Origin: a bacterium
GTDB lineage: Bacteria > Bdellovibrionota_B > Oligoflexia > Oligoflexales > RGVZ01
NCBI GenBank assembly: GCA_037134655.1
Contig: JBAXLR010000001.1
Coordinates: 4,294-68,293, forward strand
Reading direction: 5' to 3'
DNA: 64,000 bases
Shown here: positions 3,270-50,028 of the stretch, one piece after another
Layout: each line of letters opens with the position of its first letter
Numbering within the stretch: the stretch's first letter is position 1
The notes under the pieces: generated by a model
Database searches by the model: none
What the model was told of the DNA's origin: nothing
What the model saw: only the letters and a program-made list of their open reading frames with translations
Position numbers and translations under genes: made by a program

Positions 3270-3291
3270 GAGCCAATGGTGGGAATTTTTT
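3264..3291 (+). terminator. ssrA terminator hairpin
   Basis: ccacca (3264-3269) pairs with tggtgg (3277-3282), followed by a T6 run at 3286-3291. Confidence 0.55.
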
Positions 3292-5065: not shown

Positions 5066-5320
5066 GGACAAATAACCCTCGCCACCCCTGAAATCCAATG
5101 CAGTTATTTTTGAAAGTGCCAAAAAAGGGCGTAAAGATCAAAAATTTCGGGGCTTACAGATCATAGCAGGCAAAACTCAAAAAAATAGCGATTAATCGCA
5201 ATAGATTTTGATGGCTTAAAGGAAACTCTGCTGTTTTTTTGCTCCCTTCTCAGAATCCTCTTACCATAGAAGAAGACTTGTTTTTGGGCTTATAAACCAA
5301 AATAATTGCCTGGGGTTATC

Positions 5321-23980: not shown

Positions 23981-24622
23981 ATGATCACCCAAAAAAACTC
24001 TCTCGTTTTGCTTTCGCGGTTGTTTCTAGCGGTCTTCGCTGTCTTGATCTTACCAACCAACAAGCTCCAGGCAAAGTTTGATCCAGGCGTCTATCAGTTC
24101 AAAGTCCAAGACATCAAAAATAAGGCCGTTGATATGGCGTCTTACCGCGGCAAGGTTTTACTGATTGTTAACACTGCATCCTACTGCGGCTTCACGTCAC
24201 AGTATAAGCCCCTTCAAAAAACTTTCGAGCAATTCAAAGATCAAGGTTTTTTGGTGTTAGGATTTCCCAGTAATGACTTTGGTCGCCAGGAGCCTGGAAG
24301 CAATAAAGAGATCAAAGATTTTTGCGAGCTGAACTATAAAGTGAGCTTTCCTTTGTTCTCTAAGGTCACCGTATCAGGCAATCAAAAAGCTCCTTTATTT
24401 AAATATCTCACGGAAGACTCTGGTCAGGAGTTTAAACGATCAATCGACTGGAATTTCGAGAAATTCCTGATCGGTAGAGACGGCCAGCTAGTCGCAAGGT
24501 TTAAATCATCCACAGATCCACAAAGTGAAGAAATACTATCGGCGGTGAAGGCTGCACTGAAAACAAAGATCGATCAGCCTTCAGCCACCAAGGCCTTGCC
24601 CACGGCCAAACCTGACAAGTAA
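23981..24622 (+). CDS. glutathione peroxidase (Cys-type), exported
   Basis: LLIVNTASYCGFT (TGC codon, not TGA), LGFPSNDFGRQEPG and WNFEKFLIGRDG are the Gpx signatures. N-terminal signal or anchor sequence. Confidence 0.88.
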   Translation: MITQKNSLVLLSRLFLAVFAVLILPTNKLQAKFDPGVYQFKVQDIKNKAVDMASYRGKVLLIVNTASYCGFTSQYKPLQKTFEQFKDQGFLVLGFPSNDFGRQEPGSNKEIKDFCELNYKVSFPLFSKVTVSGNQKAPLFKYLTEDSGQEFKRSIDWNFEKFLIGRDGQLVARFKSSTDPQSEEILSAVKAALKTKIDQPSATKALPTAKPDK

Positions 24623-25626
24623 GCACCTTCGATCTTGGGGCCGCCGAAAGCTTCGCCGGCAAAATATATTTTGAGACTATTAGGCCCACTCCAACTTAAA
24701 TAGGGCTCATTGATCGTCGTCTTCGGGGTCGCAAAACGCCACCTGTGGACTTCGACAGTGGTAGGCCTTGTGACTTTTTTCAAATGAAAGTGTCGCCGAA
24801 GCTCATGGCACACGAAATCGACCACAACGCTGTCGTTAGCCGTAAAAAGTCCGTGGCTTGCCTCACTGGAAAGATGCACCGTTAAAGAGGCCTTCCTGCC
24901 TGACAAACCTTTCGAAAAATTATCTGCCACAAATGCCAAAGGGGCATTCATGGATTTAGCTGGAAATTTATCAAGAGGAAGCTCCTCTGGGTCAAAAAAA
25001 CCCATGACCGCAATGCAAGGGTCATAAATAACGCCACCAAGCTGCTCTATAATCTTGGAAATCTTTTGATCGAGAGGAAATTTTGCCATCATGGCGTTTG
25101 TTTGCGTCAAAGGTGATGTCAGGACTAGTTTTTTGGAAAAAAACTTAGTTCCCGGCTCAGACGTGGATGCTATAAATCCATCAATTAATTCCACGTCGAT
25201 TATTTTTTCATTAAGGGCAATATTTTTTTGAGGCAAGAGTGCCGCAAACTCTTTAACAATCTGATTCATACCATTAGTACCCACGTAGCGTGGATGACCA
25301 TCATCGAGGCTATCGCCAAAGCCCCTAACCCACTCTTTACAGATCCCCTGTTTGAGCCAGGTATCGACTTCTGCTTTAAATGCCGCTGATCTGACAGTAA
25401 AAAACTGCGCTCCGTGATCAAAACGGGCATCCTCGATTCTTCGAGTGGCCATTCTTCCACCGACAGATCTGGACTTATCGATAAGCTTCCAGGACTGCTT
25501 GTTTTCGCCAGTGCTGAGGCTTCTAGCCGCGGTGACCCCGCACAGGCCAGCGCCAATAATCAACACATCGACAATTTCTTGTATAGGTTGCATCCCAGCC
25601 TCCAGCACGGCAAAATGGTCACTCAT
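24574..25626 (-). CDS. NAD(P)/FAD-dependent oxidoreductase (renalase/amine-oxidase-like)
   Basis: DVLIIGAGLCGVTAARSL dinucleotide-binding motif and C-terminal GEAFGGPKIEGAYLSG. Start set at the ATG at 25626. Confidence 0.7.
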   Translation of the reverse strand: MSDHFAVLEAGMQPIQEIVDVLIIGAGLCGVTAARSLSTGENKQSWKLIDKSRSVGGRMATRRIEDARFDHGAQFFTVRSAAFKAEVDTWLKQGICKEWVRGFGDSLDDGHPRYVGTNGMNQIVKEFAALLPQKNIALNEKIIDVELIDGFIASTSEPGTKFFSKKLVLTSPLTQTNAMMAKFPLDQKISKIIEQLGGVIYDPCIAVMGFFDPEELPLDKFPAKSMNAPLAFVADNFSKGLSGRKASLTVHLSSEASHGLFTANDSVVVDFVCHELRRHFHLKKVTRPTTVEVHRWRFATPKTTINEPYLSWSGPNSLKIYFAGEAFGGPKIEGAYLSGLAVGKALVAEG

Positions 25627-25662
25627 TATAGTCCGGAATCCGGACTTTGGAGGCATAAAATC

Positions 25663-36189: not shown

Positions 36190-36222
36190 AATTGATACTC
36201 CTTCTTCTGCTGGCTAACTGAA

Positions 36223-37725
36223 TTAACTATTCACAGGCCACACGGCAGAAAGAACTTTCGAAGATTTTTGCGTAAAATAATTACCGTTCCACAAACTGAC
36301 ATAGAGTCGCTTAGAAAAAACGTCATTTGGGCGATAAAGCCTTCCCGCTAGATGGAAGCCGATTCCAAATATCACAAGTGAGATTGCGGACACGGCAAAT
36401 ATGGGTGAGCTAATTGTAACGACATCTAGTGTATCTGCTACGATGCTCTGCATACGCGTACCAACGTAGAATTCTATTCCTGTGTAAATAGCAACTGCTA
36501 AAAACATCATGCTTGCAATCGATGTGAAATATTTTAACCGGGAAAATTCACTTTTCGGCAGCACGACAACGCACTGCATCAGAGCAATAATCAATAATCC
36601 TGCATATGCAAAATATGAGAAGTGCGTACCATCTTGATAAACTACGCCGTATCCAAGCACCGTCAAACCAACGACGGTTGCGAGTGCGCTGTACCATGCA
36701 CCAAAAGGAGCCAACTGAAGAGACGACTTTTTGGACTCTCCGACCAGGTCCCCGGTGGATAAGAATGCGTAAGCTTTGTAAAAACTATGGGCGATGATGT
36801 GAAAAAGAGCAATTGAGTATGCGCCGAGACCACACGCAAAGATCATGAGTCCCATCTGACTAATCGTTGAATAAGCGAGTTTTTTCTTGATGTCATTTTG
36901 TGTGATCATCACAAGCGCACCATAGACGGCCGTAACGGCGCCGGCCAATGTTAGCAAAAGATGAGGCAGCTCAACGTGAGTTAGAAGTGGACTTAGACGG
37001 ATAATAAGAAATCCACCAGCATTGATTATGCCTGCATGCATGAGTGCAGATACAGGGGTAGGCGTTTCCATCGTCTCGGGAAGCCAAAAATGAAGTGGAA
37101 ACTGAGCCGATTTAGCGATCGCACCTAACGCCAGGAACACGCCGGCAGATGCAATCATTGATCCGTTGGCGGAGGCAAATGCCTGGTCTGCTGCAAGAGC
37201 GAAAATACGCTCGAATTCAAATGACTTAAAAACATTGTAGCAGATCACAAAGCCTGCCAATAAAAACAAATCTCCTAGGCGACTAATCAAAAACTTCTTA
37301 CGCGCAGCAGCCACGGCCAGCGGTCTTTGAGGATAAAACAACAAGAGGCGGTGTAGACCAATACTAGAAAGACACCAAGCAATGAAGAACATGATTAGGT
37401 TACTGGATAATACCAGTAAGGATACTGCTGATACAGTAAACAAAAGATTTTTGTAGAAGTATCCTTGACGCTCCTCGCCGTCTAAATAGCGTAGAGAGTA
37501 CTGACTAATAACAGCTCCAAGCACTGAGATCATCGCAAAAAGTACCGTCGACAATGCATCAACCTTGAAAGATAAATTCAAATCAAGGCCCGCTACCATA
37601 CCACTTAGTACTGTAAACGTACCCGGCCCATTGACAGCCTCCCAAGCAAACAAAGCCACAGCAAGAACACCCTGAGTGAGTAGCGTCCAGTGGACCAAAC
37701 GTATTTCTAATCCTTGTCGATGCAT
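36223..37725 (-). CDS. dabB: NuoL/MrpA-like proton-conducting membrane subunit DabB
   Basis: About 13 TM helices. WLPETMETPTPVSALMHAGIINAGGFL matches the NADH-quinone oxidoreductase chain 5 / Mrp antiporter core. Start set at the ATG at 37725 (GAGGAGAGGAAG RBS). Confidence 0.8.
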   Translation of the reverse strand: MHRQGLEIRLVHWTLLTQGVLAVALFAWEAVNGPGTFTVLSGMVAGLDLNLSFKVDALSTVLFAMISVLGAVISQYSLRYLDGEERQGYFYKNLLFTVSAVSLLVLSSNLIMFFIAWCLSSIGLHRLLLFYPQRPLAVAAARKKFLISRLGDLFLLAGFVICYNVFKSFEFERIFALAADQAFASANGSMIASAGVFLALGAIAKSAQFPLHFWLPETMETPTPVSALMHAGIINAGGFLIIRLSPLLTHVELPHLLLTLAGAVTAVYGALVMITQNDIKKKLAYSTISQMGLMIFACGLGAYSIALFHIIAHSFYKAYAFLSTGDLVGESKKSSLQLAPFGAWYSALATVVGLTVLGYGVVYQDGTHFSYFAYAGLLIIALMQCVVVLPKSEFSRLKYFTSIASMMFLAVAIYTGIEFYVGTRMQSIVADTLDVVTISSPIFAVSAISLVIFGIGFHLAGRLYRPNDVFSKRLYVSLWNGNYFTQKSSKVLSAVWPVNS

Positions 37726-37834
37726 TGCTTCCTCTCCTCTATTAGAAAAATCTGGAAAATCGATTTTTAAAAAGTAACTGTGGTCAAAAAAGGTTCGCTT
37801 TGTGTTCTGCACTAAGACTCTAGCAGCTGAATTC

Positions 37835-37860
37835 AATATACGCAATGTATATCGTATATT
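37835..37860. promoter_or_regulatory. inverted repeat AATATACG-N10-CGTATATT in the dabB / HTH divergent region (candidate operator)
   Basis: Perfect 8-bp arms at 37835-37842 and 37853-37860. Confidence 0.35.
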
Positions 37861-37895
37861 TTTATTCGTAATTTAGTATTCGGCACTTATAATTC

Positions 37896-37924
37896 TTGAC
37901 TTATGTGTCGTAAGATGCTAATTT
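37896..37924 (+). promoter_or_regulatory. candidate sigma70-type promoter of the HTH gene
   Basis: TTGACT (37896-37901), 17 nt, TAATTT (37919-37924). The AAGGGGG RBS and the ATG at 37946 follow. Confidence 0.3.
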
Positions 37925-37945
37925 TACCCCATAAAGGGGGCAACT

Positions 37946-38239
37946 ATGAGCGAATCAGAAGACACCAAGGAGTGGACTTTTTTGACCAACCACCTTCACG
38001 TCCTACTGGTCATTGCCTCCAGAGGCGACCTCGTTTTGAGAGAAGTTGCAAATTTGGTAGGTATTACTGAGCGAGCTGTTCAAAAGATCGTCATGGAATT
38101 AGAAGACGCTGGGTATTTAATTAGAGAACGAGTAGGTAGGGTCAACCACTACACCGTGGATCTAAATCGCCCTCTTAGGCATACCTTGGAAAGGCATCAT
38201 ACTGTTGGGGCTCTGATTCGTATTCTGCAGAAAAAGTAG
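37946..38239 (+). CDS. small winged-helix (ArsR/MarR-like) transcriptional regulator
   Basis: 97 aa. LREVANLVGITERAVQKIVMELEDAGYLIRER is a typical HTH plus wing. Divergent from dabBA. Confidence 0.6.
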   Translation: MSESEDTKEWTFLTNHLHVLLVIASRGDLVLREVANLVGITERAVQKIVMELEDAGYLIRERVGRVNHYTVDLNRPLRHTLERHHTVGALIRILQKK

Positions 38240-38253
38240 CCGTTGTTACCCTT

Positions 38254-38766
38254 TCAGATGTAGGTGCCGAACGCTAAGCGAAATAGAATCCCAAAACCTG
38301 ATTCTTTCTTGGTGATTGCTCCAGAGACAACCCTTCGGTCAGTACCACCACCCAACCAATCAAATCCGAAGTAAGCGCGCTCATGCCGCCATCTATTACC
38401 AAGTGATGCGCTAATTCCGACATGGTTGGCGGGCGCCTCGCCAGCATAATCAATGCGGCGATAATAGGGCGACCAAGCAACATTAAAACTATTGCCGAGG
38501 AAGTGTCGGAGCTTAATTCCAGCCATATAACCGCGATCAGGAGGATATGAGAAAAAAGAATATGTTGGCGTTTCTCGGTACGCCTCAATGGCAAGGGAAG
38601 GATCGACTATATATCCTAAAGAAAAATTCCCGGTAAATAGACCCAACGCGGAAACCTCAATTCCAGCGCTGAATTTCTTCGAATCAACTTCAGCTGCTTG
38701 AGCGTACGATACATTTGCCAACGTCATGCTTAAAAAAATACAATTGACGAACAAACCAAGACGCAT
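38254..38766 (-). CDS. small outer-membrane beta-barrel protein
   Basis: Start set at the ATG at 38766 (GGAGGA RBS). Signal peptide ...VSYAQA, alternating aromatic beta-strands and terminal F-x-Y-I. The upstream part of track ORF 38254..39153 overlaps the next gene. Confidence 0.55.
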   Translation of the reverse strand: MRLGLFVNCIFLSMTLANVSYAQAAEVDSKKFSAGIEVSALGLFTGNFSLGYIVDPSLAIEAYRETPTYSFFSYPPDRGYMAGIKLRHFLGNSFNVAWSPYYRRIDYAGEAPANHVGISASLGNRWRHERAYFGFDWLGGGTDRRVVSGAITKKESGFGILFRLAFGTYI

Positions 38767-38797
38767 GATTTTCCTCCAATAGATTTTTTTAAAATAC

Positions 38798-39574
38798 TCA
38801 CTCAACATCCAGACGACACATATCGTCAATCCAAACTCCGCCTTTGGCTTGGCATTTTTTAGCTTTTTCCAGAAGTTGTTTGTTGTCCGCTTTACTGGAA
38901 GGTGGTTCGGATTCTGATCGGGCTGGTTTCGCCTGTAAATACCAACCAAAGCTAAAATAGATCGCAGCGTAGTTTCGACCTTTATCCCATAAATCAGCGG
39001 CCGTTTTTTGATCATTAGCCACGTCGTAGATCTCCCAGTACTTATAACTTTCTGCGGTTTGAATGCGTCCGAGACTTCTAATGCCAAAAGTGAAGTAGTA
39101 AAAATCATTTCCTTGCCACCCCACTTCAGGCCCAAGAAGCCAGCCTCGATCATAAAACTCTAGTTCTTGCTTTGGCTGAGCTTCCGTCTCACCGGTTTGT
39201 TGCAGTTCTAAGGAAGTGTAGTAAGTTCCGCCGATCATGCCGAAGTACAATCCTGAGTTATAAACGTGGCGATAAGCCATCTGAATTGAGGTTTTAGTTA
39301 GATTGATTTTACTAGTCTGCGACAAATTTTCGTTGCTTTCACCGGCTGACTCCAAATGAAAGTGAATCTGCTTATTAGACTCGTGCAGGTTATAGTCGTA
39401 GAAATAATAGCTACCGCCAACGGCACCTCCTGAAAAGCCGATACCAAGACCGTGCTGATCGATGCCTTCATTAAACTGAATTTGATTTGGAACGTGCTCT
39501 GCGAAAATCGTAGAACTGACTACAAACAAAAAAGCGCTGAGTGTGATCCTGGTTTCAAAACGAATGCCTCCCAT
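38798..39574 (-). CDS. outer-membrane beta-barrel-like protein with Cys-containing C-terminal tail
   Basis: Start at the ATG at 39574 (GGAGGG RBS). Signal peptide present. Gly/aromatic beta-strand pattern. Tail is KKCQAKGGVWIDDMCRLDVE. Confidence 0.5.
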   Translation of the reverse strand: MGGIRFETRITLSAFLFVVSSTIFAEHVPNQIQFNEGIDQHGLGIGFSGGAVGGSYYFYDYNLHESNKQIHFHLESAGESNENLSQTSKINLTKTSIQMAYRHVYNSGLYFGMIGGTYYTSLELQQTGETEAQPKQELEFYDRGWLLGPEVGWQGNDFYYFTFGIRSLGRIQTAESYKYWEIYDVANDQKTAADLWDKGRNYAAIYFSFGWYLQAKPARSESEPPSSKADNKQLLEKAKKCQAKGGVWIDDMCRLDVE

Positions 39575-39862
39575 TTCCAAAATCCCTCCGATGATGTTTT
39601 TGTCTGATCGGGTGCTGGGGGACATTTCTAAACGACATCGGGCGGAGGATCGGCCTACCGAGGACCACTTTTATTCAATAAAACCAGGATGTTATAAAAT
39701 ATCGCGCGGGCCTGCTATTGCATGATCATGTCGCTGAAAAAGTGATGAAAGTCATGTTTCACTGATCGGTAAAACTCCAAGCAACTGGTTTTGACGTACT
39801 GCTGAGAAAAAATACCATCGTAAATTTAGACATCGCTATGCCAAGCATAGCTCGACAGGGGA

Positions 39863-40140: not shown

Positions 40141-40902
40141 ATGACGGAACTAACAGCAGGGCAGTTTTCGCTCGTTTACAACATGTTTTCTTTAACAATT
40201 GCCAGTATGGGTGCAGCATTCATATTCTTCTTGGCATCACGGTCTAGTGTTGCCCCGAAATACCGCGGCGCACTAACGGTCTCGGCTTTGGTTGTAGCTA
40301 TCGCTTGCTATCACTACTTCCGTATCTTCAATAGCTGGAATGAAGCATTCACCCTAAGCGGCGCCGTCTATGCTCCGTCTGGCAAGCCTTTTAACGACGC
40401 TTACCGCTATGTTGACTGGCTTTTGACTGTTCCATTGCTACTTGTTGAGCTTGTTGCTGTATTGGCTCTACCTAAAAATCAACGCGAAGGTCTATTTGGC
40501 AAGCTAGCAATTGCTGCTTTCCTCATGATTGCACTTGGTTACCCAGGTGAAGTCGCAACTGACAATACGACACGCGCCATCTGGGGCACACTGTCCTCGA
40601 TCCCATTCGTTTACATCCTTATGATCCTTTGGGGCAAATTGGGTGCGGCGATCGAAAGCCAGCCAGGTGAAGCTAAAGTCTACTTGACCAACATTCGCCT
40701 CCTTCTTCTCTTGACCTGGGGCTTCTACCCAATCACCTACATGCTGCCTATGTTCGGCATTGACCCACAATCATCGGTTGTTGGTATTCAGGTTGGATAT
40801 GCTGTCGCTGACGTGCTTGCAAAAGCCTTCTACGGCGTGATGATCTACTGGATCGCCAGAGCTAAGTCTGAAAACGAAGGTTTTGCTGACGCAGCTCACT
40901 GA
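40141..40902 (+). CDS. xanthorhodopsin-clade light-driven proton-pumping rhodopsin
   Basis: RYVDWLLTVPLLLVEL gives the D-T-E motif (D92/T96/E103 from the ATG at 40141). YHYFR provides the His. ADVLAKAFYG provides D224/K228 (Schiff-base Lys). The protein resembles Salinibacter xanthorhodopsin over its whole length as I recall that sequence. GGAGTGGAG RBS. Confidence 0.92.
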   Translation: MTELTAGQFSLVYNMFSLTIASMGAAFIFFLASRSSVAPKYRGALTVSALVVAIACYHYFRIFNSWNEAFTLSGAVYAPSGKPFNDAYRYVDWLLTVPLLLVELVAVLALPKNQREGLFGKLAIAAFLMIALGYPGEVATDNTTRAIWGTLSSIPFVYILMILWGKLGAAIESQPGEAKVYLTNIRLLLLLTWGFYPITYMLPMFGIDPQSSVVGIQVGYAVADVLAKAFYGVMIYWIARAKSENEGFADAAH

Positions 40903-40935
40903 TCCACGTTCTGGTCGCTCTCGCGACCAAACAGT

Positions 40936-42954
40936 CTATTGATAGGCCGCCTCTGCTGAAAAGCGAGGCGGTTTTCTTTTAAGAAATCGTTTCATGGCCG
41001 GGGCGTGGGATGCCGTCAAGGCCCCAACACCCAGAAAAACAACCTGCCAAAGCTGGTTTTGATCACCGGAGCGGGCGTAGATCCAGGCTATGACACCAAT
41101 GCCAAGGATACTTGCTACCGTGTAGCGGAGGCTTTTACTTACGTATTGCTTGGCCGTCCAGTCATTGGCAGCCCTTTGCGCCAGAATAGAATCCCAGCCA
41201 TGCCAGAACGCGAAGAAACAAAAAAACCCAGGCAGTAGGGGTAGCGCCAGTATGGAAGCGGCCAGAACCAGTGTGGCGGGCAAACCAATGACCGCCCTTC
41301 CGAGGGCTTTGCGCTCGTATCGATCTAGATTGCCAGCTGCAAAAATCCCTGCAATAAAAACCAAAACACCGCACCAACGCGCAGCCTCTAAGGTTATTCC
41401 CGTGACAGAAGCCGAGTCTCTAAGGATTAACTGGATAATTGGGCTCGCCTCCTGCCAATGCATGAACACCCCAAACGTTGCGGCAAACAATCCCCACTGC
41501 CAGGCCAAAACGCGACTCCAAAGGGCATAGCCTGAATTTTTGATGGCACGAATCCAATTTGCTTCACCAAAATGATCAGCTGATTGAAACAGGAAAAAAC
41601 CTAGTGCCAGGGGCGGGTACAGCCACCACATGAGAACAAAAAGGATGATGGAGCCAAGGTACAGACCGTAAAATTCGCGGGGTTTACGAGCTACTGGATC
41701 AAGTAGATGATCGAGGCTGCCATGGCCGATTCCAGCAGTTAAAAGACCGATCATTGGAATAATCCATCCGGCGACTCCACCGACGGTCCAATGGAGTGCA
41801 ATGCTTGCAGATACTGCAAAGATAAATGGGTAAAAAACTACAAGACTGCGTAAGAATGGCCCCCAGGGAAGGCCAAAAAATATTTTAATTTCCTCCCCGA
41901 AGCTGGACCTCTCATCAAGGAACGCGAAAATTTTTGAGGGACTATTTGCAGAAAAAAGCACGAGAAAAATCTTGGAGATGAACTCCCCCTGGGTCCTGAT
42001 GATCCTTAGAAGAAGAGCATCATAAACCTGAAACCGAAAATGCCCATATGACGTATTTGCTGAACCAGTCAGATGTCGAAGATTTCTTTGAAAAGAGTAG
42101 CCTGTACTGGCTTTGACCATTCCAGCAGCACTGCCGATTGTCTCAATCACGGAATTGAGTTCTGGTGGGGGGAACTTTGACGCTGCTCCTAGAGTCATGG
42201 GAATAGCGCCTGACTCCACTTTAAGAATCCGAAAATTTGGCAAAGAAAGCTTTCGAGCAATATAATCTCGAAGGATCGACTCACACTCCTCGGTAGTGAT
42301 TCTTTTGGCCGCAAATACGGTGAATTCCACCAAGGCTCGACGTCTGTCAAAAGGCAGGATGTAAACAAAGCGAACCTCGCCCACCTGGTCTAGCCTAAAA
42401 TCCATTAAATCAACCAGGTGAGGATCAAAGTAGTCCTCTTCAGTTTCAAGCTCAAAGCCAAGAAAATACTGCAATAATTCTGGTTTTTGAACCGTCACAG
42501 AATTAAAGATATGCTTTGCCGCGAACGTCTGGCCAGATGTGGTCGTCACAAACGCTTTTTTCCTGGATGACCCCACGTCAGATTTCTCGTTGATCGTTGT
42601 GACAGAATCAACCACTCGATGAAATCGGCTATCATTCTCAAGGCGGTTTTTGATTTTTAAGAGCAGCCGTTCGCCGGGAATTCGCTCGTAGTAATAATCG
42701 CCAAAATCACGAACGACTTTTTGACCCTCAGTCGACGTTATTCGAAATCTTTCCCAGCGATTTTCGATGCAATCCGCGTAACGATGGGGCTTAGACGTTT
42801 TCAGCCGCCAAGAGGCAAAGGTCTTTGACGAAAGGGAATCCGGATCGGGATCGATGATGGCAACCCGCAGATCCCTCGACGGATCATCTGCGAGGATGTC
42901 GGCTTGCATGAGGCCAGCCAGGCCGCCGCCAACGATAATAACGTCAAAATCCAT
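40936..42954 (-). CDS. fusion protein: lycopene beta-cyclase (CrtY-type, N-terminal) + Brp/Blh beta-carotene 15,15'-dioxygenase (C-terminal)
   Basis: N-terminal half: DVIIVGGGLAG, RFVYILPF, GAIPMT, AGMVKASTGYSF, FLDERS. C-terminal ~300 aa is polytopic with GHGSLDH, SADHFGE, FWHGWDS and SHAP (the four-His Brp/Blh pattern). The ATG at 42954 overlaps the upstream stop as ATGA. Confidence 0.8.
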   Translation of the reverse strand: MDFDVIIVGGGLAGLMQADILADDPSRDLRVAIIDPDPDSLSSKTFASWRLKTSKPHRYADCIENRWERFRITSTEGQKVVRDFGDYYYERIPGERLLLKIKNRLENDSRFHRVVDSVTTINEKSDVGSSRKKAFVTTTSGQTFAAKHIFNSVTVQKPELLQYFLGFELETEEDYFDPHLVDLMDFRLDQVGEVRFVYILPFDRRRALVEFTVFAAKRITTEECESILRDYIARKLSLPNFRILKVESGAIPMTLGAASKFPPPELNSVIETIGSAAGMVKASTGYSFQRNLRHLTGSANTSYGHFRFQVYDALLLRIIRTQGEFISKIFLVLFSANSPSKIFAFLDERSSFGEEIKIFFGLPWGPFLRSLVVFYPFIFAVSASIALHWTVGGVAGWIIPMIGLLTAGIGHGSLDHLLDPVARKPREFYGLYLGSIILFVLMWWLYPPLALGFFLFQSADHFGEANWIRAIKNSGYALWSRVLAWQWGLFAATFGVFMHWQEASPIIQLILRDSASVTGITLEAARWCGVLVFIAGIFAAGNLDRYERKALGRAVIGLPATLVLAASILALPLLPGFFCFFAFWHGWDSILAQRAANDWTAKQYVSKSLRYTVASILGIGVIAWIYARSGDQNQLWQVVFLGVGALTASHAPAMKRFLKRKPPRFSAEAAYQ
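40947..40980 (+). terminator. rho-independent terminator of the rhodopsin gene
   Basis: ccgcctc (40947-40953) pairs with gaggcgg (40965-40971), then ttttctttt. It lies inside the 3' end of the convergent crtY-blh ORF. Confidence 0.7.
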
Positions 42955-44111
42955 CAAATCGGCGACCACTTGATCACCCGACCCTTCCATTCATAAGAGC
43001 CGCGCAAGCTCGTTCTGAGAGACTTGTAAGCAGCTATATTGAATAGTAACAAACTGAGGGGATGTAAAAGCACATCACGAAGTGGCATCTTAAATAATTT
43101 TGCCGTCAACATTCGGCTTACTAAAACCAACCCTAGAGAAATCAGCGCAAATTGCGGGCGAAAAAAATAGCCCCACAATGGAAACATAAAAACAAGATTC
43201 ACCAGAATGACCACACACCCAAAAACTAGTGGCGTGCCTCCCCCAATCATGACCAAATTTTTTGAGAAGCCGGCTAGCGTAGCCCGCCAATCAGAATACA
43301 TGGCCACACTGATATCAGTTGCTGCCAAAACAGGCTGCACACCACGACCTGTCACCCGCTGAATCTGACGAGCTAGTGCAACGTCTTCAAGTGGTGTCAC
43401 ACCAAGCCTTTGGTGCCCTCCACTAGCATAATAATCAGGCTTGAATAACGCAATCCACTGTCCGTTAGCCATTTGCATTGACTTGAAAGGCAGACGCCAC
43501 GTGCAAAATAGCGGTAATGACATCAGCAAAGGAAGATGCATGATCCAAGGAATCAACAGACGCTCTAGTAATCCTTCACACGACTGTGCTGGTAAAGCTG
43601 TTAGACCAGCCATTTTTTCTCTCGCGCCAGGCTTCATCATCAAATTGACGGTATTCCGAATAGCCGTGGGTGATGGCCTAACATCTGCATCACAAAAGAT
43701 CAAAATCTCACCCTTTGCCACTGCAGCAAGCTGGGCACAAGCATGGGCTTTGCCTGAAAGTTGGGTCGCTTCCGACCATGGAATTCCCGCTACGATACGC
43801 ACGGGGAATGGAGCATCTGACATTAGATCTGTAGCGATTTTTGCTGAATGATCTCTAGATCCGTCATCTAATATAATGACTTCAAGGGGCTGATAGGTCG
43901 AATTCAGTAAAGCTGGCAGAAGATGTCGTAGGTTATTCGCCTCGTCACGCACAGGCACGAGAAAACTTACCAGTGGTTTTTCGGTGGTGGTAACCTCAGA
44001 TTGTCCCATCTTTGCAGCCAACGCTGCATTAAGGATGACCATTAAAGTCGTGACACAACACGCCAGTAAACAAAACCAACAGACCACATCAATCAGCAAC
44101 GCTGCATTCAT
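42954..44111 (-). CDS. family-2 glycosyltransferase (carotenoid glycosyltransferase CruC-like by context)
   Basis: FLVPVRDE, ILDDGSRD, FCDADV (GT2 DxD) and C-terminal TM helices. ATGA overlaps on both sides within the carotenoid operon. Confidence 0.65.
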   Translation of the reverse strand: MNAALLIDVVCWFCLLACCVTTLMVILNAALAAKMGQSEVTTTEKPLVSFLVPVRDEANNLRHLLPALLNSTYQPLEVIILDDGSRDHSAKIATDLMSDAPFPVRIVAGIPWSEATQLSGKAHACAQLAAVAKGEILIFCDADVRPSPTAIRNTVNLMMKPGAREKMAGLTALPAQSCEGLLERLLIPWIMHLPLLMSLPLFCTWRLPFKSMQMANGQWIALFKPDYYASGGHQRLGVTPLEDVALARQIQRVTGRGVQPVLAATDISVAMYSDWRATLAGFSKNLVMIGGGTPLVFGCVVILVNLVFMFPLWGYFFRPQFALISLGLVLVSRMLTAKLFKMPLRDVLLHPLSLLLFNIAAYKSLRTSLRGSYEWKGRVIKWSPI

Positions 44112-44782
44112 CAGCCACCACCTGCTAATAAAGCTTGGGGTGCGCTGATTGAGGCTAGATCCAAAAGCCTCGTAACTTCGGCTTCCAAAGTCTTGTGATC
44201 GATATTTTTACTGAGACTATCAATCGGCTGACCCGCATAAATGAAAACGGTTGGTTTCTCCTGGGTCATAGGCTCAATGTGAAGCCCTAGTGGCACATAC
44301 TGAACGCGACCAACTATCTTTGCCAAAGTTTCAATGCCACGACGAAACCCAAGCGGTCTTTGACGCAGAGGCGAGATTTCACCTTGGGGGAAATAGGTCA
44401 GAGTCCGGTATGGATTTGCAGCCGCCAGATCACGAAACTGGATGAAGGCTCTACGCACGCTTACTGGATTACCAGGTTCCAACCCAAAACATCCGATTTT
44501 ACGTAAAATGGGAAACTTCTTTAGCTCGCTTTCGAGCATCAAAGAATAGATACCCGATCCAGGACGAAGCCGATTTTGGACTTCAAAGCAAAAAAATCCG
44601 TCCCACCAGCTGATGTGATTAGGAACCAATATGACAGGTAACTTCGGATCAAGCTGACCCAGTGCGGCGTCCAAATCAAAATGGATGGATGCAAAAGCTC
44701 TACGGTACTTCCACTGTAAGTACCTATCCCAAAACCACCTTACATTGTCATTATGCCTGGGTGACACGGGTTCGAAATCCAA
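44111..44782 (-). CDS. PlsC-family acyltransferase (carotenoid glycoside acyltransferase CruD-like by context)
   Basis: NHISWWDG is the HxxxxD acyltransferase motif. 223 aa, within the carotenoid operon. Confidence 0.6.
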   Translation of the reverse strand: MDFEPVSPRHNDNVRWFWDRYLQWKYRRAFASIHFDLDAALGQLDPKLPVILVPNHISWWDGFFCFEVQNRLRPGSGIYSLMLESELKKFPILRKIGCFGLEPGNPVSVRRAFIQFRDLAAANPYRTLTYFPQGEISPLRQRPLGFRRGIETLAKIVGRVQYVPLGLHIEPMTQEKPTVFIYAGQPIDSLSKNIDHKTLEAEVTRLLDLASISAPQALLAGGG

Positions 44783-45671
44783 GCGGTAATGTGCCTCGGC
44801 TCAAGCCAAATATATAGAGCACTAGCAGTGTCAATGCCGTGAGAATCACGGGCGACCAGGCTGCACCGGCTATGGATAACCCAACCGGAAGGAACAAGTT
44901 TAGGAAGTAAAATTTTATCGGCCATGAACGCTCGAAGCGATGTCCATAGTTACCGAGCCCTAGTGCTTCAAAACTGAGGAATATTAAAAATCCAGTGAGT
45001 AACCAACCTAGAAGATTTCTGACCGCTACGCCGAGGAAAAAGACTCCAGATTCTTCCCAGATCCAATATGGAGTCAACTGGCTCATGGCTGGTTCAAGTG
45101 TGAAATCCCAAGCAATGAGCAATAAAGACGCTACTGCAATTCGCCCTAAAGAAAATCGCAATTGATCGAGCCTTCCTTGAAAGACCCTCCGAGGTTTGCG
45201 TCCAATAATCTGAGTTGCAAGGAGATGACAGCAAAGGGTCATGCAAAACCAGCTGATCGGAATCAGCACTGGGACTTTATCGCCAAGCTGCCAACCGAGA
45301 AGGCTCGTATACGAGTATTTGCCAAAAGGTATACCGTAACTGGTACCACCAAATTCCATAAAAAAACTGATCAAAAACGCTGAGAAAAAGTAGGCGAGCC
45401 AGCGCCAGCCCAAAACCTTATGGGCAGCCTGTATGCACAGCCAAAAACAAAGAAGAATCTGCAATCTCGCAAAAAGCGGGTATGATATGGCATAGATTGG
45501 CGGTGACCAAGGAAAACGCGCAAACAACTCTGGATGCAGCGTAAACGTGGCGTATCCAAAGATTGAAATCGCATTGATGAAAAGCAAAGCCCACATTGGA
45601 GAAAAGAATAGCACATGAGTCCCTTGGAGCAAGGACATTTGGGGGCCACCAGAATCCCAGTCAGGGATCAT
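44751..45671 (-). CDS. membrane carotenoid biosynthesis protein (CruF-like carotenoid 1,2-hydratase family)
   Basis: Polytopic. GIPFGKYSYT and AWDFTLEPAM...YWIWEE resemble the conserved PF04240-type motifs as I remember them. The true start may be an internal Met. Confidence 0.55.
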   Translation of the reverse strand: MIPDWDSGGPQMSLLQGTHVLFFSPMWALLFINAISIFGYATFTLHPELFARFPWSPPIYAISYPLFARLQILLCFWLCIQAAHKVLGWRWLAYFFSAFLISFFMEFGGTSYGIPFGKYSYTSLLGWQLGDKVPVLIPISWFCMTLCCHLLATQIIGRKPRRVFQGRLDQLRFSLGRIAVASLLLIAWDFTLEPAMSQLTPYWIWEESGVFFLGVAVRNLLGWLLTGFLIFLSFEALGLGNYGHRFERSWPIKFYFLNLFLPVGLSIAGAAWSPVILTALTLLVLYIFGLSRGTLPLGFRTRVTQA

Positions 45672-46376
45672 CTAGCACCCATTTTGGCCTTCTGTGTCAT
45701 TGGCGCCTGGGCATTTAGCCTCTGGTACGCGTTCTTCCATCTGCGTACCGGGATTTTCCCCGACTCTTTGGCCAGTATCGGCATGATGCTTTGGATGCAG
45801 TTTCTTAATTGTGGACTTTTTATTGTCACTCACGACGCCTGCCATGGTACTGCCTGGCCTGGGCATCCCAGACTGAATCGCTGGTTAGGAAAGACCACCG
45901 CGAGGCTCTATGCTGCCTTCAATTTTGATCGGCTTGTGCCAAAGCATCTCGCCCATCACGTCCATGTCGCCACTAATCTAGACCCGGACTTTAACGATCA
46001 CACCAAAAAGGGTGAAGGATTTTTCGCCTGGGGATGGCGATTTTTCCGCCAATATCTGAGCTTTAGCCAAATTATTATCATGATGGGGGTCGCCCAAATT
46101 TTCTTTCATATTCTAAAAATACCCGAAAGAAACGTGATCCAGTTTTGGGTTGTGCCGGCTATTATGAGCAGCATTCAGCTCTTTTACTTCGGAACGTGGT
46201 TACCGCACCGAGTCATCCCTGGAAAAGACTTCGCTGATAAGCATCATGCCAGAGATTCTGGACTGCCTTGGATATTATCACTCGTCTCATGCTGGCATTT
46301 CGGCTACCATCATGTGCATCACCTTAAACCGGGCGTGCCATGGTTTCGGCTACCCTCCCAAAGGAGAACATCATGA
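45615..46376 (+). CDS. crtW: beta-carotene 4-ketolase
   Basis: Three His boxes HDACHG, HLAHHVH and HHVHHL. FGTWLPHR and PWFRLP are typical of CrtW. Confidence 0.88.
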   Translation: MSPLEQGHLGATRIPVRDHLAPILAFCVIGAWAFSLWYAFFHLRTGIFPDSLASIGMMLWMQFLNCGLFIVTHDACHGTAWPGHPRLNRWLGKTTARLYAAFNFDRLVPKHLAHHVHVATNLDPDFNDHTKKGEGFFAWGWRFFRQYLSFSQIIIMMGVAQIFFHILKIPERNVIQFWVVPAIMSSIQLFYFGTWLPHRVIPGKDFADKHHARDSGLPWILSLVSCWHFGYHHVHHLKPGVPWFRLPSQRRTS

Positions 46377-46579
46377 AAGTTCAATCAATCCTAATGTGGA
46401 CACTTGGCGGAGCGTTATTTGGAGTTGCCTTCGGAGCGATCGCTTCCATCTTTCAAGGCGGTCCAGACGTGATGCGAGGCATACAAGAATCATGGTGGTG
46501 GTTTGCGGGAGCTGGATTTCTGATCTCAACGATCGGTAATCGCAGGTCACAAGTTGGACGTTCGCAACAGGCCGGCTGA
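46373..46579 (+). CDS. small two-helix membrane protein co-transcribed with crtW
   Basis: 68 aa. AAGGAG RBS. The ATG at 46373 overlaps the crtW stop (ATGA). Two hydrophobic segments. Confidence 0.4.
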   Translation: MKVQSILMWTLGGALFGVAFGAIASIFQGGPDVMRGIQESWWWFAGAGFLISTIGNRRSQVGRSQQAG

Positions 46580-47446
46580 TCCCAATGCTTTGATCGCAAA
46601 AACCAGAAAAATCCCCTGAGCTACGGCTATTATTTTTCCCGCACTTGAAACAATTGTGCGCCTGCGAAATGCCAACTCAGGATTAGATTTAGCAGCCCTC
46701 AATAGTTTATGACCAATGCGCTGATAAACCTTTCCAGCGACCGCGATGGCAAATGAAACGCGCCAGGGCAACCAATAAATACCTTGAAATCCGTGCTCAT
46801 ACAAATCGTCGGCGCGACTCAGTAGCCTACTCACTGCTCCGGAAGCGAGCTCTGGGTTAGTCGATAACTCTTCATGTGTCGTTTCTGGTAAAAAATCCTT
46901 GGGTATATAAACTCGGCCAAGACGCGCATCCGTTTGGATATCCCTCGCGATATTAGTGAGCTGCATGGCAGAACCGAGGGACATGGCATGTGGACTTGCC
47001 ATTTTTGGCTCTGCTCCCAGAAGTGGGCACATCATGAGTCCCACCACACCAGCGACCCTAAAGCAATACTGCTCAAGCTCTTGCAAGCTCTTGTAGCTGT
47101 GGCCTTCCACATCCATACGCATACCGGCAATAAACTCAGACCTCTGCCAATCGTTCACCCAAGCGGGCCCGGCGAGGCTAGCGCCCGCTGATCGTCGATC
47201 TTCCATCTTAGTGAGCATCACCCTTGCCGACTGGGCATCGGGTGCGTCGTCGATGGCATCATCACAGCGTCTGCACCACTGATAGAGCATCAGAACTTTT
47301 TCCCGGCAATTCACGGGTAAGAAAAGTGACGCTAGGGAAAAACTCTTTGATCCCTGTCTGATAACCTCAGCAGGGGATGCATTAAAATCAATTGGTGGTG
47401 ACTGGATCATGTAGGACCCGTGGTTTGCGGTCTCGAATGGGACCAT
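46547..47446 (-). CDS. crtB: phytoene synthase
   Basis: SKSFSLASLF, YQWCRRCDDAIDD, YCFRVAGVVG and NIARDIQTDARLGRVYIP. An alternative start exists at 47410. Confidence 0.9.
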   Translation of the reverse strand: MVPFETANHGSYMIQSPPIDFNASPAEVIRQGSKSFSLASLFLPVNCREKVLMLYQWCRRCDDAIDDAPDAQSARVMLTKMEDRRSAGASLAGPAWVNDWQRSEFIAGMRMDVEGHSYKSLQELEQYCFRVAGVVGLMMCPLLGAEPKMASPHAMSLGSAMQLTNIARDIQTDARLGRVYIPKDFLPETTHEELSTNPELASGAVSRLLSRADDLYEHGFQGIYWLPWRVSFAIAVAGKVYQRIGHKLLRAAKSNPELAFRRRTIVSSAGKIIAVAQGIFLVFAIKALGSAGLLRTSNL

Positions 47447-48950
47447 AAGCTTTTAAGTCTTCAAGCACAAGCGTTGCCGTGGCCTTGGCTGAGTTCACAA
47501 CACCGGGCACACCAGCGCCTGGATGTGTCCCGGCCCCCGTAAAGTACATTCCAGCCACACGGTCATCACGGTTATGAGTACGAAAGAACGCACTTTGCCA
47601 AAGAACCGGCTCACTTGAAAATGCCGATCCTAGATGGGAGTTTAACTCCACCTTGAAATCCATCGGCGTGAAAATTTTCTGGGTTACGATGTGCTGACGC
47701 AAACCCGGCGCATAGTGTTGCTCGATGTAATTTAAGATGCGGTCAGCGTAGGCTGGGCCTTCTTTTTTCCAGTCAACATTGAGATTTCCCAGATGTGGAA
47801 CGGGCGATAGAACGTAAAATGCCTCACACCCTTCCGGCGCCATCCCAGGATCAGTCCGTGTTGGAGCATGCAAATAAAGGGAAAAATCATCTGGGATTTT
47901 TTTAGCCTTAGTAAAGATCTGACTTAGAAGCCCGCGGTAAGACTTTCCAAAAAGAATATTATGGTGTGCAAGCTCCGGATACTGCCTGTTTGTGCCAAAA
48001 TAAATTAAAAATAACGACATGCTCTGCGAGTGACCAAGGACTTTCTTACGCCCTGGTGCGGCCTCTGGAACATTGCGCAAAAGATGACTATAGCTGTGCA
48101 CTACATCGGCGTTTGAAACGACCACATCACAAGGCCAAACACCCTCTGCAGTCTTGATCCCGCTGACTTGGCCCTCAGCTGTAAGAATCTCTTCAACCGA
48201 AGACGACAAGCGAACCTCACCACCCATCTCCTCGAAGAGTCTGACTAAGGCCTTGACCAAAGCACCAGTCCCCCCACGCGGGAAGAAGACACCCCAATTT
48301 CGTTCAAGATAGTGAATCAATGTGTAAATCGACGATGTTTTAAATGGATTACCACCAACCAAAAGCGTGTGGAAGCTGAACGCTTGTCGCAGTTGTGGAT
48401 CCTTAATAAATCGCGCGACTGTTTTGAAGACGGAGCGATGGGCGCTGAGCTTCACCAACTGTGGTGCCACACGAATCATACTCCACCAGTTTAGAAACGG
48501 CACGTGGGCCAACTTGGTATAGCCTTCGTCAAAAACTTCTTTTGAATACTTTAAGAACTTGGAGTAACCGTCAACGTCCTGTGGTGATTTTTTTTGGATC
48601 TGATCGAATGTACTGACAGGATCATTTGAGTAATCAAAGGAAAAACCATTTTCCCAGAATAGACGGTAGAATGGCGTGACTGGCATCATCTCCACGTAGT
48701 CTTCCATTTTCTTACCAGCACAGTCAAAAAGCTCACGCAGACAGTCTGGGGCCGTAATAACGGTCGGTCCTGCATCAAAGATGAAACCCTTGTCGCGGTA
48801 AACGTAGGCTCTGCCGCCAGGCTGATCACGCTTTTCAAATATAACGACCTTGTTTCCCGCCGCTTGCAAGCGAATGGCGGCGGCAAGACCTCCAAAACCA
48901 CTACCAATCACAGCTATTCGAGTGGACTCTTTTGATTTACGCATATGCAC
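47388..48950 (-). CDS. crtI: phytoene desaturase
   Basis: IAVIGSGFGGLAAAIRL, EKRDQPGGRAY and C-terminal FTGAGTHPGAGVPGV. Confidence 0.92.
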   Translation of the reverse strand: MHMRKSKESTRIAVIGSGFGGLAAAIRLQAAGNKVVIFEKRDQPGGRAYVYRDKGFIFDAGPTVITAPDCLRELFDCAGKKMEDYVEMMPVTPFYRLFWENGFSFDYSNDPVSTFDQIQKKSPQDVDGYSKFLKYSKEVFDEGYTKLAHVPFLNWWSMIRVAPQLVKLSAHRSVFKTVARFIKDPQLRQAFSFHTLLVGGNPFKTSSIYTLIHYLERNWGVFFPRGGTGALVKALVRLFEEMGGEVRLSSSVEEILTAEGQVSGIKTAEGVWPCDVVVSNADVVHSYSHLLRNVPEAAPGRKKVLGHSQSMSLFLIYFGTNRQYPELAHHNILFGKSYRGLLSQIFTKAKKIPDDFSLYLHAPTRTDPGMAPEGCEAFYVLSPVPHLGNLNVDWKKEGPAYADRILNYIEQHYAPGLRQHIVTQKIFTPMDFKVELNSHLGSAFSSEPVLWQSAFFRTHNRDDRVAGMYFTGAGTHPGAGVPGVVNSAKATATLVLEDLKAYGPIRDRKPRVLHDPVTTN

Positions 48951-50028
48951 GCATCACTTTCTGCGCAAGCTCTCGCAAGGAAGACTGCGCCAACTTGTGC
49001 GCGTCAGTTTTAACAAGACTATTGATCTCATCCATACAGTTTTCAAATTCAACTACAGCCAGTTCAGTGGCTCTTTTAACTATTTGGTCGACAAGTGCTC
49101 CAGTTGTGCAAAGGCCGCCCATCATACTTTGGAATTTTGCGAATTCCTCGGAGCTAAGCTCTCGCGCAGCCACAGCCCAAACCCAAGAAGGCCTGAGTAG
49201 GGGGCGAAGCGCTTGATCGTCTTTAATTTTTGCAAAGACTTCTCCAATATCGTTAAACATCTGTAACGCGACGCCAAATCTTTGGCCAAGTGTGGTTAAT
49301 TGACGACGACGAGTCGGTTCTGCATTTCCAACAATTGCACCCAGCTCTGAGCACATGGCGGTAAGCTCACCCGTCTTTAATTCGATTGCAGCAACGGAAA
49401 TTTCGAAGCCTTCAGCTTGCGAAGTTTTGGTCATATCATGCCCCAAATCAAGGGCTTGGCCCTGATGGGCTCGCATCATGGTCTTATGAAACAGACGGTA
49501 GATCTCAAGCTCCATAGCTGGCTCAAGAGTCTGCTGCCGCAGTAAATCGGTTGGCCAAAAATAAAGCCAGTTGGCCGCATTGATGGTACGCGGAACGCCA
49601 ATTTGCATATGAAGAGCTGCTTTGCCGCGACGCATGTCGTCAGCATCTTGAATATCATCGATCATGAGTGAACCGGCATGGAGTGCCTCCACCACGCAAG
49701 CCATGCAGTCGAGCAGCTTTTCTTGATCGGCGTTTGGTGATACGCCGTGGCTGGTAGCAAGACTAAAGCCGATTCGGACCAGTTGCGCCCGAACCTGCTT
49801 GGAATCACGGCTGACAAATTCACGAACAGGCACGAGTAAGGCACTATCAATGCCGGGCGTGTCGACGCCCGCGCGAGCCGAGGTTGGTAATAGCTCCGCC
49901 AACAGGGGCAACTGGGCGCTCCCAATGACGTTTTTTTGTAAATTTGCTGGATTGTCAATCACACGTAATAGCCTACTGGATGAGACCAAATGGGTCAAGG
50001 AATGTGAGTAAAAAATAGCACCACCCAC
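48937..50028 (-). CDS. crtE: polyprenyl (geranylgeranyl) diphosphate synthase
   Basis: HAGSLMIDDIQDADDMRRG (first DDxxD) and INAANWLYF, like type-III GGPPS. The second motif is degenerate (FNDIGE). GTG start. Overlaps the crtI start. Confidence 0.75.
   Translation of the reverse strand: MGGAIFYSHSLTHLVSSSRLLRVIDNPANLQKNVIGSAQLPLLAELLPTSARAGVDTPGIDSALLVPVREFVSRDSKQVRAQLVRIGFSLATSHGVSPNADQEKLLDCMACVVEALHAGSLMIDDIQDADDMRRGKAALHMQIGVPRTINAANWLYFWPTDLLRQQTLEPAMELEIYRLFHKTMMRAHQGQALDLGHDMTKTSQAEGFEISVAAIELKTGELTAMCSELGAIVGNAEPTRRRQLTTLGQRFGVALQMFNDIGEVFAKIKDDQALRPLLRPSWVWAVAARELSSEEFAKFQSMMGGLCTTGALVDQIVKRATELAVVEFENCMDEINSLVKTDAHKLAQSSLRELAQKVMRAYA

Follow-up and report, generated by a model that had tools for sequence, protein, structure and literature searches.

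The DNA analysed here is a 64-kb stretch of a bacterial contig (JBAXLR010000001.1), the whole of which is referred to as the window. At positions 40141-50028 it holds a block of about 10 kb in which a xanthorhodopsin (XR) gene lies together with the genes for retinal biosynthesis and with a further set predicted to build a keto-carotenoid glycoside ester, a possible antenna pigment of the rhodopsin. A preliminary description of this DNA had listed nine open reading frames (ORFs) in a compact operon layout; comparison with the ORF list and with Pfam and NCBIfam profile matches bore out the coordinates, the stated families and the layout. A tenth gene, a 68-aa ORF at 46373-46579 (+), was missing from that description. 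The locus contains the following features:

40141-40902 (+): xanthorhodopsin-clade rhodopsin, 253 aa; PF01036, 131 bits; GGAG ribosome-binding site 7 nt upstream of the ATG.
40913-40928 (no strand): inverted repeat GGTCGC-TCTC-GCGACC, read directly from the sequence.
40936-42990 (-): CrtY-Blh fusion, 684 aa; PF05834, 175 bits; PF15461, 97 bits; TIGR03753, 105 bits.
42954-44111 (-): family 2 glycosyltransferase (GT2), CruC-like carotenoid glycosyltransferase, 385 aa; PF00535, 67 bits.
44111-44782 (-): PlsC-family acyltransferase, CruD-like, 223 aa; PF01553, 22.9 bits (cut-off 23.0).
44751-45671 (-): CruF-type carotenoid 1',2'-hydratase; PF04240, 148 bits (cut-off 25).
45615-46376 (+): CrtW-type beta-ring 4-ketolase, 253 aa; NF045690, 222 bits; also PF00487.
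46373-46579 (+): 68-aa glycine-zipper membrane protein, helical hairpin; ATGA coupling to crtW; AGGAG ribosome-binding site.
46547-47446 (-): CrtB phytoene synthase, start at 47446 or 47410; PF00494, 181 bits; NF042419 as top match.
47388-48950 (-): CrtI phytoene desaturase; TIGR02734 (crtI_fam), 659 bits (cut-off 238).
48937-50028 (-): polyprenyl diphosphate synthase (CrtE); PF00348, 119 bits.

Several gene boundaries in this compact layout overlap. ATGA overlaps had been proposed at 44111 and 42954. The first is a true ATGA (44108-44111), whereas the form of the junction of crtY-blh with the GT2 gene at 42954 depends on the start of CrtY-Blh: with Met13 as the start it is a TGATG in which the two genes share one base, and with 42990 as the start they overlap by 37 nt. 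When the longest ORFs are taken, there is a head-to-head overlap of 57 nt between cruF (45671) and crtW (45615). Given this clash, the true cruF start probably lies between 45596 and 45638; gene callers place CruF relatives at 265-293 aa, and set the cruF and crtW starts of relatives 0-74 bp apart. With the two starts back-to-back or overlapping (45596-45671), there is essentially no room between the genes, and both promoters must lie inside the neighbouring coding sequences. Scans of the locus for promoters and terminators were uninformative, the promoter counts being no better than those of shuffled sequence. Members of the CrtB cluster are called at 287 aa. The rhodopsin and crtY-blh genes converge with 33 bp between them, and this gap holds the inverted repeat at 40913-40928. 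The repeat has no T-run; it may mark a bidirectional transcript end, and was not called by the terminator scan.

The profile matches show that all five activities needed for retinal (CrtE, CrtB, CrtI, CrtY and Blh) are encoded, as the preliminary description had claimed. In the CrtY-Blh fusion an FAD-type lycopene beta-cyclase domain forms the N-terminal part (residues 16-307, PF05834) and a Brp/Blh beta-carotene 15,15'-dioxygenase domain the C-terminal part (residues 415-663, PF15461), and the TIGR03753 score exceeds its cut-off of 95. For the polyprenyl synthase, geranylgeranyl diphosphate (GGPP) synthase models are among the top NCBIfam matches, below their cut-offs, and we infer from the context that it is CrtE. 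The fusion was considered as a possible novelty of this locus and rejected as such: 54 of the 150 best 50%-identity cluster representatives are 640-703 aa long, and most of these 54 aligned across both domains. Adjacent or fused crtY/blh matches also occur in XR loci of Gemmatimonadales, Myxococcota and Balneolales, and Blh is unfused in one Oligoflexia relative (L004).

The second set of genes (crtW, cruF, GT2 and acyltransferase) had been proposed to tailor a carotenoid, and family matches support this. We looked for placement of the CruF, acyltransferase or GT2 products in non-carotenoid families, and this did not occur. CruF, a member of a carotenoid-specific family (PF04240), has NF045693 'gamma-carotene 1'-hydroxylase CruF' as its top NCBIfam match (135 bits; equivalog cut-off 400). 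The ketolase shows the HDACHG and HHVHH boxes, and NF045690 is its top match by a wide margin (E 1e-65; CrtR next at 44 bits; cut-off 350). The 90%-cluster mates of GT2 are named 'chlorobactene glucosyltransferase' by JGI, and the protein is 34% identical to the glycosyltransferases of the Deinococcus deserti (E 1e-26) and Thermus thermophilus (E 1e-23) carotenoid clusters, both of which came from a protein search of plasmids. In the D. deserti cluster, CruF, a lysophospholipid acyltransferase and a GT2 occur in the same order as in the window, flanked by crtI and crtB. The T. thermophilus cluster holds an acyltransferase-glycosyltransferase pair homologous to that of the window; Thermus is a maker of carotenoid glucoside esters, T. 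thermophilus producing zeaxanthin glucoside esters. The window acyltransferase has an HX4D motif ('HISWWD') and 'FPQGE', and aligns through HX4D and FP(E/Q)G with the glycosyltransferase-adjacent acyltransferases of Thermus (E 2e-10) and Deinococcus (E 3e-11), and with the syntenic gene in L004 at E 6e-27. Because the homologue search with this protein returned only close relatives under generic names (1-acyl-sn-glycerol-3-phosphate acyltransferase), its link to CruD is drawn from synteny and pairwise comparison. In Thermomicrobium roseum a CruF-acyltransferase fusion lies beside CruC, and the authors who described it regard it as the equivalent of cruF and cruD, which are separate genes in Salinibacter.

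Together, these genes would allow the following route. CrtE, CrtB and CrtI would convert isoprenoid diphosphates to lycopene, which CrtY would cyclise; fully cyclised beta-carotene would be cleaved by the fused Blh to retinal. At the monocyclic stage the pathway would branch, CruF hydrating the open psi-end and thereby blocking the second cyclisation. GT2 would then glycosylate the 1'-hydroxyl, the acyltransferase would esterify the sugar and CrtW would ketolate the ring, a CrtW-type ketolase in the locus giving the host the gene-level capacity for a 4-keto ring. The predicted end product is 1'-(acyl-glycosyl)oxy-1',2'-dihydro-beta,psi-caroten-4-one, of the 4-keto-gamma-carotene type, which would resemble salinixanthin minus the 2'-hydroxyl and possibly minus the 3',4' double bond. 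The preliminary description had noted the lack of CrtD and predicted such a simpler ester. A dedicated search found no crtD, crtZ or crtI paralogue elsewhere in the 64-kb window, in agreement with the first point and consistent with the second. A 360-aa amine-oxidase ORF in the window (24574-25656) has matches to protoporphyrinogen-oxidase models alone, and those are weak. Because the ketolase is of the CrtW type and no second gene of the CrtI/CrtD family is present in the window, the predicted product differs from salinixanthin. The salinixanthin pathway in the strict sense, which adds a CrtO-type ketolase, a 3',4'-desaturase and 2'-hydroxylation to CruF/CruC/CruD, was not found in the window.

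The rhodopsin falls clearly within the XR family. Its highest scores are to the Salinibacter ruber XR (SrXR; 3DDL, 298 bits), Gloeobacter rhodopsin (GR, 289), psXR (281) and Kin4B8 (280), followed by two further rhodopsins at 260 and 215; all other solved rhodopsins, including chloride and sodium pumps and proteorhodopsins, score at most 112 bits. Sequence identity is 61% to SrXR, 57% to Kin4B8 and 56% to GR. A residue map shows a complete set of pump residues (H58, D92, T96, E103, D224 and K228), the DTE motif and its His partner matching SrXR H62, D96, T100, E107 and D236, with K228 aligned to SrXR K240. By these residues, the protein is predicted to be an XR-clade outward proton pump. The green-tuning position is Leu. 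In a rough neighbour-joining (NJ) distance tree, which is not a maximum-likelihood tree, the rhodopsin groups inside the XR family in an Oligoflexia subclade of its own, separate from the Kin4B8, SrXR/Bacteroidota and cyanobacterial GR clades.

Inspection of the residues that line the carotenoid site reveals that Gly149 ('AIWGT') aligns with the fenestration position of known antenna binders (SrXR G156, GR G178 and Kin4B8 G153), and judged by this residue the fenestration would be open. GR and Kin4B8 no longer bind carotenoid when the Gly is replaced by Trp or Phe. All members of the window's XR clade retain this Gly. Helix F reads Y-M-L-P-M-F in the window rhodopsin, compared with Y-M-I-P-M in SrXR, Y-L-L-P-M in GR and Y-A-M-G-S-Y in Kin4B8, so that M201 and M204 correspond to SrXR M208 and M211. 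In Kin4B8, S208 and Y209 hydrogen-bond the 3-hydroxy ring of zeaxanthin or lutein; the window rhodopsin lacks this pair and has Met/Phe at those positions. The GR carotenoid-lock/alignment motifs G178/T179/F185/P226/I227 are kept, with T182 replaced by Ser. The pocket thus looks like that of the keto-carotenoid binders and not that of the hydroxy-carotenoid binder Kin4B8. Separately, two loci with XRs 91% identical to Kin4B8 (L065 and L069) carry Ala in place of Gly at SrXR position 156 while retaining the pocket Y-A-(L/M)-G-S-Y.

To place the locus among its relatives, one genome per species was scanned with an XR profile and the best-scoring 80 loci of at least 590 matches were taken; window proteins were run by tblastn against all fetched loci, with some loci examined by gene-table look-up. 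The closest of the 80 are an Oligoflexales metagenome-assembled genome (MAG; L008, XR 98% identical) and a "Pseudobacteriovorax" MAG (L009, 91%), followed by "Bdellovibrio sp. LF-bin-439" (L010, 74%) and "Oligoflexia LF-bin-178" (L011, 73%). Given these relatives and their common subclade in the NJ tree, assignment of the host to Oligoflexia is reasonable. Proteins identical to those of the window occur in an NCBI MAG and in several freshwater metagenomes.

By tblastn, XR, blh, crtY, GT2, acyltransferase, cruF, crtW and crtB/I/E are all found together in L001, L005/L006, L008, L009 and L010. Gene-table look-ups show the same set in L088 up to the locus end, where cruF and crtW fall outside, while L090 shows the XR-side part and L094 the crt-side part, each bounded by the locus end. 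Three gene orders are seen: that of the window, one with crtE-I-B on the other side of XR (L010 and L088), and that of L090, where the small ORF immediately precedes XR. Across all three, crtW-cruF-acyltransferase-GT2 adjoins XR in every Oligoflexia-clade locus that has tailoring genes. In L004 and L011, XR and an unfused blh are placed between a crtZ-like gene plus crtW on one side and cruF-acyltransferase-GT2 on the other, and the flanks lack crtE/B/I/Y. The linkage of XR to the tailoring genes is therefore not due merely to backbone genes common to both pathways. Within L004 the cruF-acyltransferase-GT2 trio is retained as a unit at 30-45% identity. In contrast, about 70 XR loci of other phyla (including Chloroflexota, Deinococcota, Cyanobacteria, Sphingomonadales, Bacteroidota and Myxococcota) contained no cruF, acyltransferase or GT2 homologue within 10 kb by tblastn. 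The sole crtW-XR linkage outside Oligoflexia in the sample is that of L085, an uncultured bacterium with a GR-like XR (70% identical to GR; ~2428, 5713-6456) and a crtW-like gene about 3 kb away.

All ten ORFs are intact in L008, L005 and L009. DNA identity across the locus is approximately 72-74% (L008, L005), and in L009 it occurs in blocks at 67-71%, with 64-79% per gene. Collinearity in relatives at such DNA divergence (~72-74% identity) shows that chance does not explain the arrangement of the locus. XR is the most constrained gene, with 98% protein and 87.5% DNA identity to L008 (10001-10759), compared with 64-90% protein identity for the other nine. Recent horizontal transfer of XR was considered and rejected, as the DNA identity is only 87.5%; for the same reason the high protein identity points to purifying selection. 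The flanks show no synteny with L008, L009 or L010, and no mobile-element genes were present among the flanking ORFs scanned.

We consider it very probable that the locus encodes the biosynthesis of retinal and of a keto-carotenoid glycoside ester. The fuller proposal is that this ester also serves as antenna of the encoded rhodopsin, the locus being a co-inherited photosystem module of freshwater Oligoflexia (Bdellovibrionota); for this whole statement, antenna included, we estimate a probability of about 0.5. The 4-keto ring of the pigment would dock into the fenestration at Gly149 and lie against the ring of retinal, in the manner of salinixanthin in the Salinibacter XR, and the pigment would pass blue-green excitation to retinal while its acyl-glycoside tail anchored it in the membrane.

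Several observations weigh against this proposal. CruF, CrtW and GT2 score below their NCBIfam equivalog cut-offs and the acyltransferase below its Pfam cut-off, and the matches support the tailoring reactions well in kind but do not point to a particular substrate, sugar or acyl chain. A crtZ or crtD beyond the 64-kb window could change the product, and a crtZ-like gene is present inside the L004 cluster. Two XRs of the same subclade (L007 and L012) have no carotenoid genes nearby. The pocket sequence is a weak predictor of carotenoid specificity, because psXR, which has a GR-like pocket, did not bind canthaxanthin. Kin4B8 binds salinixanthin and canthaxanthin but shows little or no energy transfer.

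The alternative that survives best, although we judge it on the unlikely side, is that the glycoside ester stabilises the membrane or gives photoprotection and is no antenna, the rhodopsin working with retinal alone. The adjacency of the genes would then stem from the common crtE/B/I/Y backbone and from a need for both products in the light. Carotenoid glycoside esters have been suggested to reinforce the membranes of Thermus, Thermomicrobium and Rhodothermus, which have no rhodopsin, and both the binding of salinixanthin by Kin4B8 without energy transfer and the lone XRs of L007 and L012 fit such a role. Against it stand the fenestration Gly retained throughout the clade and the match of the pocket to keto-carotenoid binders. 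Furthermore, the tailoring genes flank XR and blh in L004/L011 where backbone genes are not nearby, and the XR-tailoring linkage occurs in no other phylum of the sample.

A second possibility is that CrtY and CrtW together make the antenna, a simple bicyclic carotenoid such as echinenone or canthaxanthin, as in Gloeobacter rhodopsin, with the glycoside ester serving otherwise. CrtY and CrtW alone suffice for either compound, GR binds echinenone, canthaxanthin and salinixanthin, its lock/alignment motifs are conserved in the window rhodopsin, and the GR-like XR of L085 has its crtW-like gene 3 kb away. However, in all Oligoflexia arrangements the linkage of cruF-acyltransferase-GT2 to XR is as tight as that of crtW, and we regard a bicyclic antenna as distinctly improbable. 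That GT2 and the acyltransferase are mere neighbours acting on non-carotenoid lipids (hopanoids, lipid A or phospholipids) is hardly credible: GT2 does have the hopene-associated HpnB as its top NCBIfam match (77 bits against a cut-off of 379) and the acyltransferase annotation is generic, but both genes lie between cruF and crtY-blh with translational coupling, the same trio recurs in the same order in Deinococcus deserti and the acyltransferase-glycosyltransferase pair in Thermus, the trio holds together in L004, and the cluster mates of GT2 carry the chlorobactene glucosyltransferase label.

If the proposed antenna system is compared with those already described, the XR/salinixanthin pair of S. 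ruber is the nearest. SrXR is the closest solved structure, it shares with the window rhodopsin the DTE/His pump residues, Gly156 and the helix-F Y-M-x-P-M pocket, and the predicted window pigment would likewise be a monocyclic 4-keto carotenoid acyl glycoside. All enzymes of the locus belong to known families and the predicted system works like the Salinibacter pair; it is not a new kind of system. Differences are nevertheless apparent. SrXR F157 is Thr in the window rhodopsin, and the SrXR L148 loop is absent, as it is in GR. The window ketolase is CrtW, whereas a CrtO-type enzyme lies beside XR in Salinivenus (L066), and without CrtD or a 2'-hydroxylase in the window the product is probably simpler than salinixanthin. 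In this Salinivenus locus (XR 89% identical to SrXR; the one Salinibacteraceae locus examined with Pfam), only a CrtO-like ketolase/oxidoreductase and a cyclase-like gene are found near XR. Neither L066 nor L073 contained cruF, acyltransferase or GT2 by tblastn, while the window has the whole pathway contiguous. The hosts also differ, SrXR coming from a halophilic member of the Bacteroidota and the window from a freshwater member of Oligoflexia.

Kin4B8 (PDB 7YTB/8I2Z) shares with the window rhodopsin phylum, freshwater habitat, XR family and fenestration Gly, but belongs to a different XR subclade at 57% identity, and has the S208/Y209 pocket for 3-hydroxy rings where the window has Met/Phe. 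In the Kin4B8-like locus L065, a polyprenyl synthase gene and blh are the only companions of the rhodopsin gene, and tailoring genes are missing. GR (6NWD) resembles the window rhodopsin in its 56% identity, equal loop length before helix E and the G178/T179/F185/P226/I227 residues, and binds 4-keto carotenoids; it differs in its cyanobacterial host and simple bicyclic ketocarotenoid antenna. The three tailoring families and the order cruF-acyltransferase-GT2 recall the CruF/CruC/CruD module for psi-end tailoring, known from CruC and CruD of Chlorobaculum tepidum, CruF of Deinococcus, the CruF-acyltransferase fusion plus CruC of Thermomicrobium roseum and the acyltransferase-glycosyltransferase pair of Thermus; HX4D and FP(E/Q)G are both retained in the window acyltransferase. 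Identity is only 27-37%, and the likeness rests on the Deinococcus and Thermus cluster homologues; moreover, the module is rhodopsin-linked in the window, whereas the clusters of those organisms contain no rhodopsin. We know of no glycoside-ester genes linked to Gloeobacter rhodopsin. The XR operons of Alphaproteobacteria carry the rhodopsin with retinal-pathway genes. No tailoring genes were detected by tblastn in the Alphaproteobacteria XR loci that were fetched. The available part of the published account describes a complete XR gene cluster, termed 'XR operon', that travels as a unit through horizontal operon transfer in Alphaproteobacteria such as Tardiphaga, and keto-carotenoid or glycoside-ester tailoring genes are not among the genes reported there.

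The preliminary description had called the lineage an unusual one for antenna-assisted phototrophy, a view that is outdated. Kin4B8, the model freshwater antenna xanthorhodopsin, derives from an uncultured Bdellovibrionota bacterium, and a 2020 list of MAGs with genes for bacteriochlorophyll- or rhodopsin-based phototrophy includes five Oligoflexia MAGs. Two of these five, LF-bin-439 and LF-bin-178, carry loci of this type. We found no description in the available literature of the contiguous, co-inherited arrangement of XR with full retinal and keto-carotenoid glycoside-ester pathways, of its confinement, in our sample, to a freshwater and glacial Oligoflexia clade, or of the XR-linked small protein discussed below. 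Native antenna pigments of freshwater XRs are largely unknown; Kin4B8 itself was characterised with carotenoids from lake extract (lutein and zeaxanthin) and not with the pigment of its own host. In just 10 kb the window combines a fenestrated XR and a complete, uninterrupted predicted pathway to one particular keto-carotenoid glycoside ester, a size that permits synthesis and expression as a single cassette and makes the native antenna of a freshwater XR directly testable. The Met/Phe pocket with CrtW in the window and the Ser/Tyr pocket of Kin4B8 also constitute a natural experiment on antenna specificity.

The small ORF at 46373-46579 (+) starts within an ATGA overlap with the crtW stop, is preceded by an AGGAG ribosome-binding site and shares its last 33 nt with the 3' end of the convergent crtB. 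Of the fetched loci, 13 contain homologues of the 68-aa protein (44-99% identity), placed next to XR or crt genes. In Oligoflexia loci the ORF follows crtW, is convergent with crtB or precedes XR, while in the L007 metagenome contig and in Bacteroidota, Rubricoccaceae and Ignavibacteria loci it is placed immediately downstream of XR. A profile search collected a family of 133 members of 58-91 aa, with no Pfam domain and nearly all labelled hypothetical. The ORF was adjacent to XR or an XR-crt cluster in six of six informative look-ups, the seventh ending at a contig edge. In L096 it comes after an XR gene that has no carotenoid genes around it, which ties the family to the rhodopsin itself. 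Relatives of the small ORF were located as follows:

L007: 3301-3513.
L023: ~3094-3324.
L090: 6001-6177.
L091: 6001-6234.
L095: 5001-5225.
L096: 5001-5219.

The conserved core of the protein reads G-x-x-F-G-x-x-F-G-A-x-A-S-x-F-x-G-G-P ... E-S-W-W-W-F, and AlphaFold predicts a helical hairpin with helices at 2-26 and 33-55 (predicted local distance difference test, pLDDT, 74). Profile searches of Pfam and PDB with this protein yielded nothing beyond noise attributable to its glycine-zipper composition, and a literature search on the family found nothing. The obvious hypothesis is that it is a rhodopsin-associated subunit, which would associate physically with the rhodopsin and affect its assembly, its oligomer state or the docking of the carotenoid. 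An extended proposal, which we hold to be doubtful, is that of a three-part photosystem inherited as a unit, consisting of XR, an endogenous keto-carotenoid glycoside-ester antenna and a dedicated glycine-zipper two-helix subunit bound to the rhodopsin. If it is true, XRs in several phyla (Oligoflexia, Bacteroidota and Ignavibacteria) have an unrecognised protein partner, and the XR-linked small membrane protein is in any case a candidate component of rhodopsin photosystems in several phyla.

Beyond the ten ORFs, a multi-pass membrane protein of about 300 aa, with no Pfam domain and 51-73% identity, is absent from the window locus and lies beside the XR cluster in three genomes labelled Oligoflexia or Bdellovibrio:

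L004: 8866-9792 (-).
L088: 6982-7878 (-).
L010: ~5250-6140.

Just upstream of the rhodopsin locus, at 33691-38239, the window encodes DabA (DUF2309, 832 aa), a DabB-like NuoL/proton-antiporter subunit (540 aa) and a small MarR-type regulator. This dab block of approximately 4.7 kb is present in the window and in L002 and missing from L001, a strain whose rhodopsin is identical and whose DNA otherwise matches at 90-95% identity. The comparison of the three indicates that a proton-motive-force-driven inorganic-carbon pump forms a strain-variable island beside the predicted light-driven proton pump. Directly upstream of the rhodopsin, the region 38254-39625 (-) contains two overlapping ORF predictions (299 and 275 aa) with no Pfam match. 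The 299-aa ORF corresponds to two tandem genes at the same position in L001, with 83% and 49% identity, and the products of this region look like small outer-membrane beta-barrel proteins.

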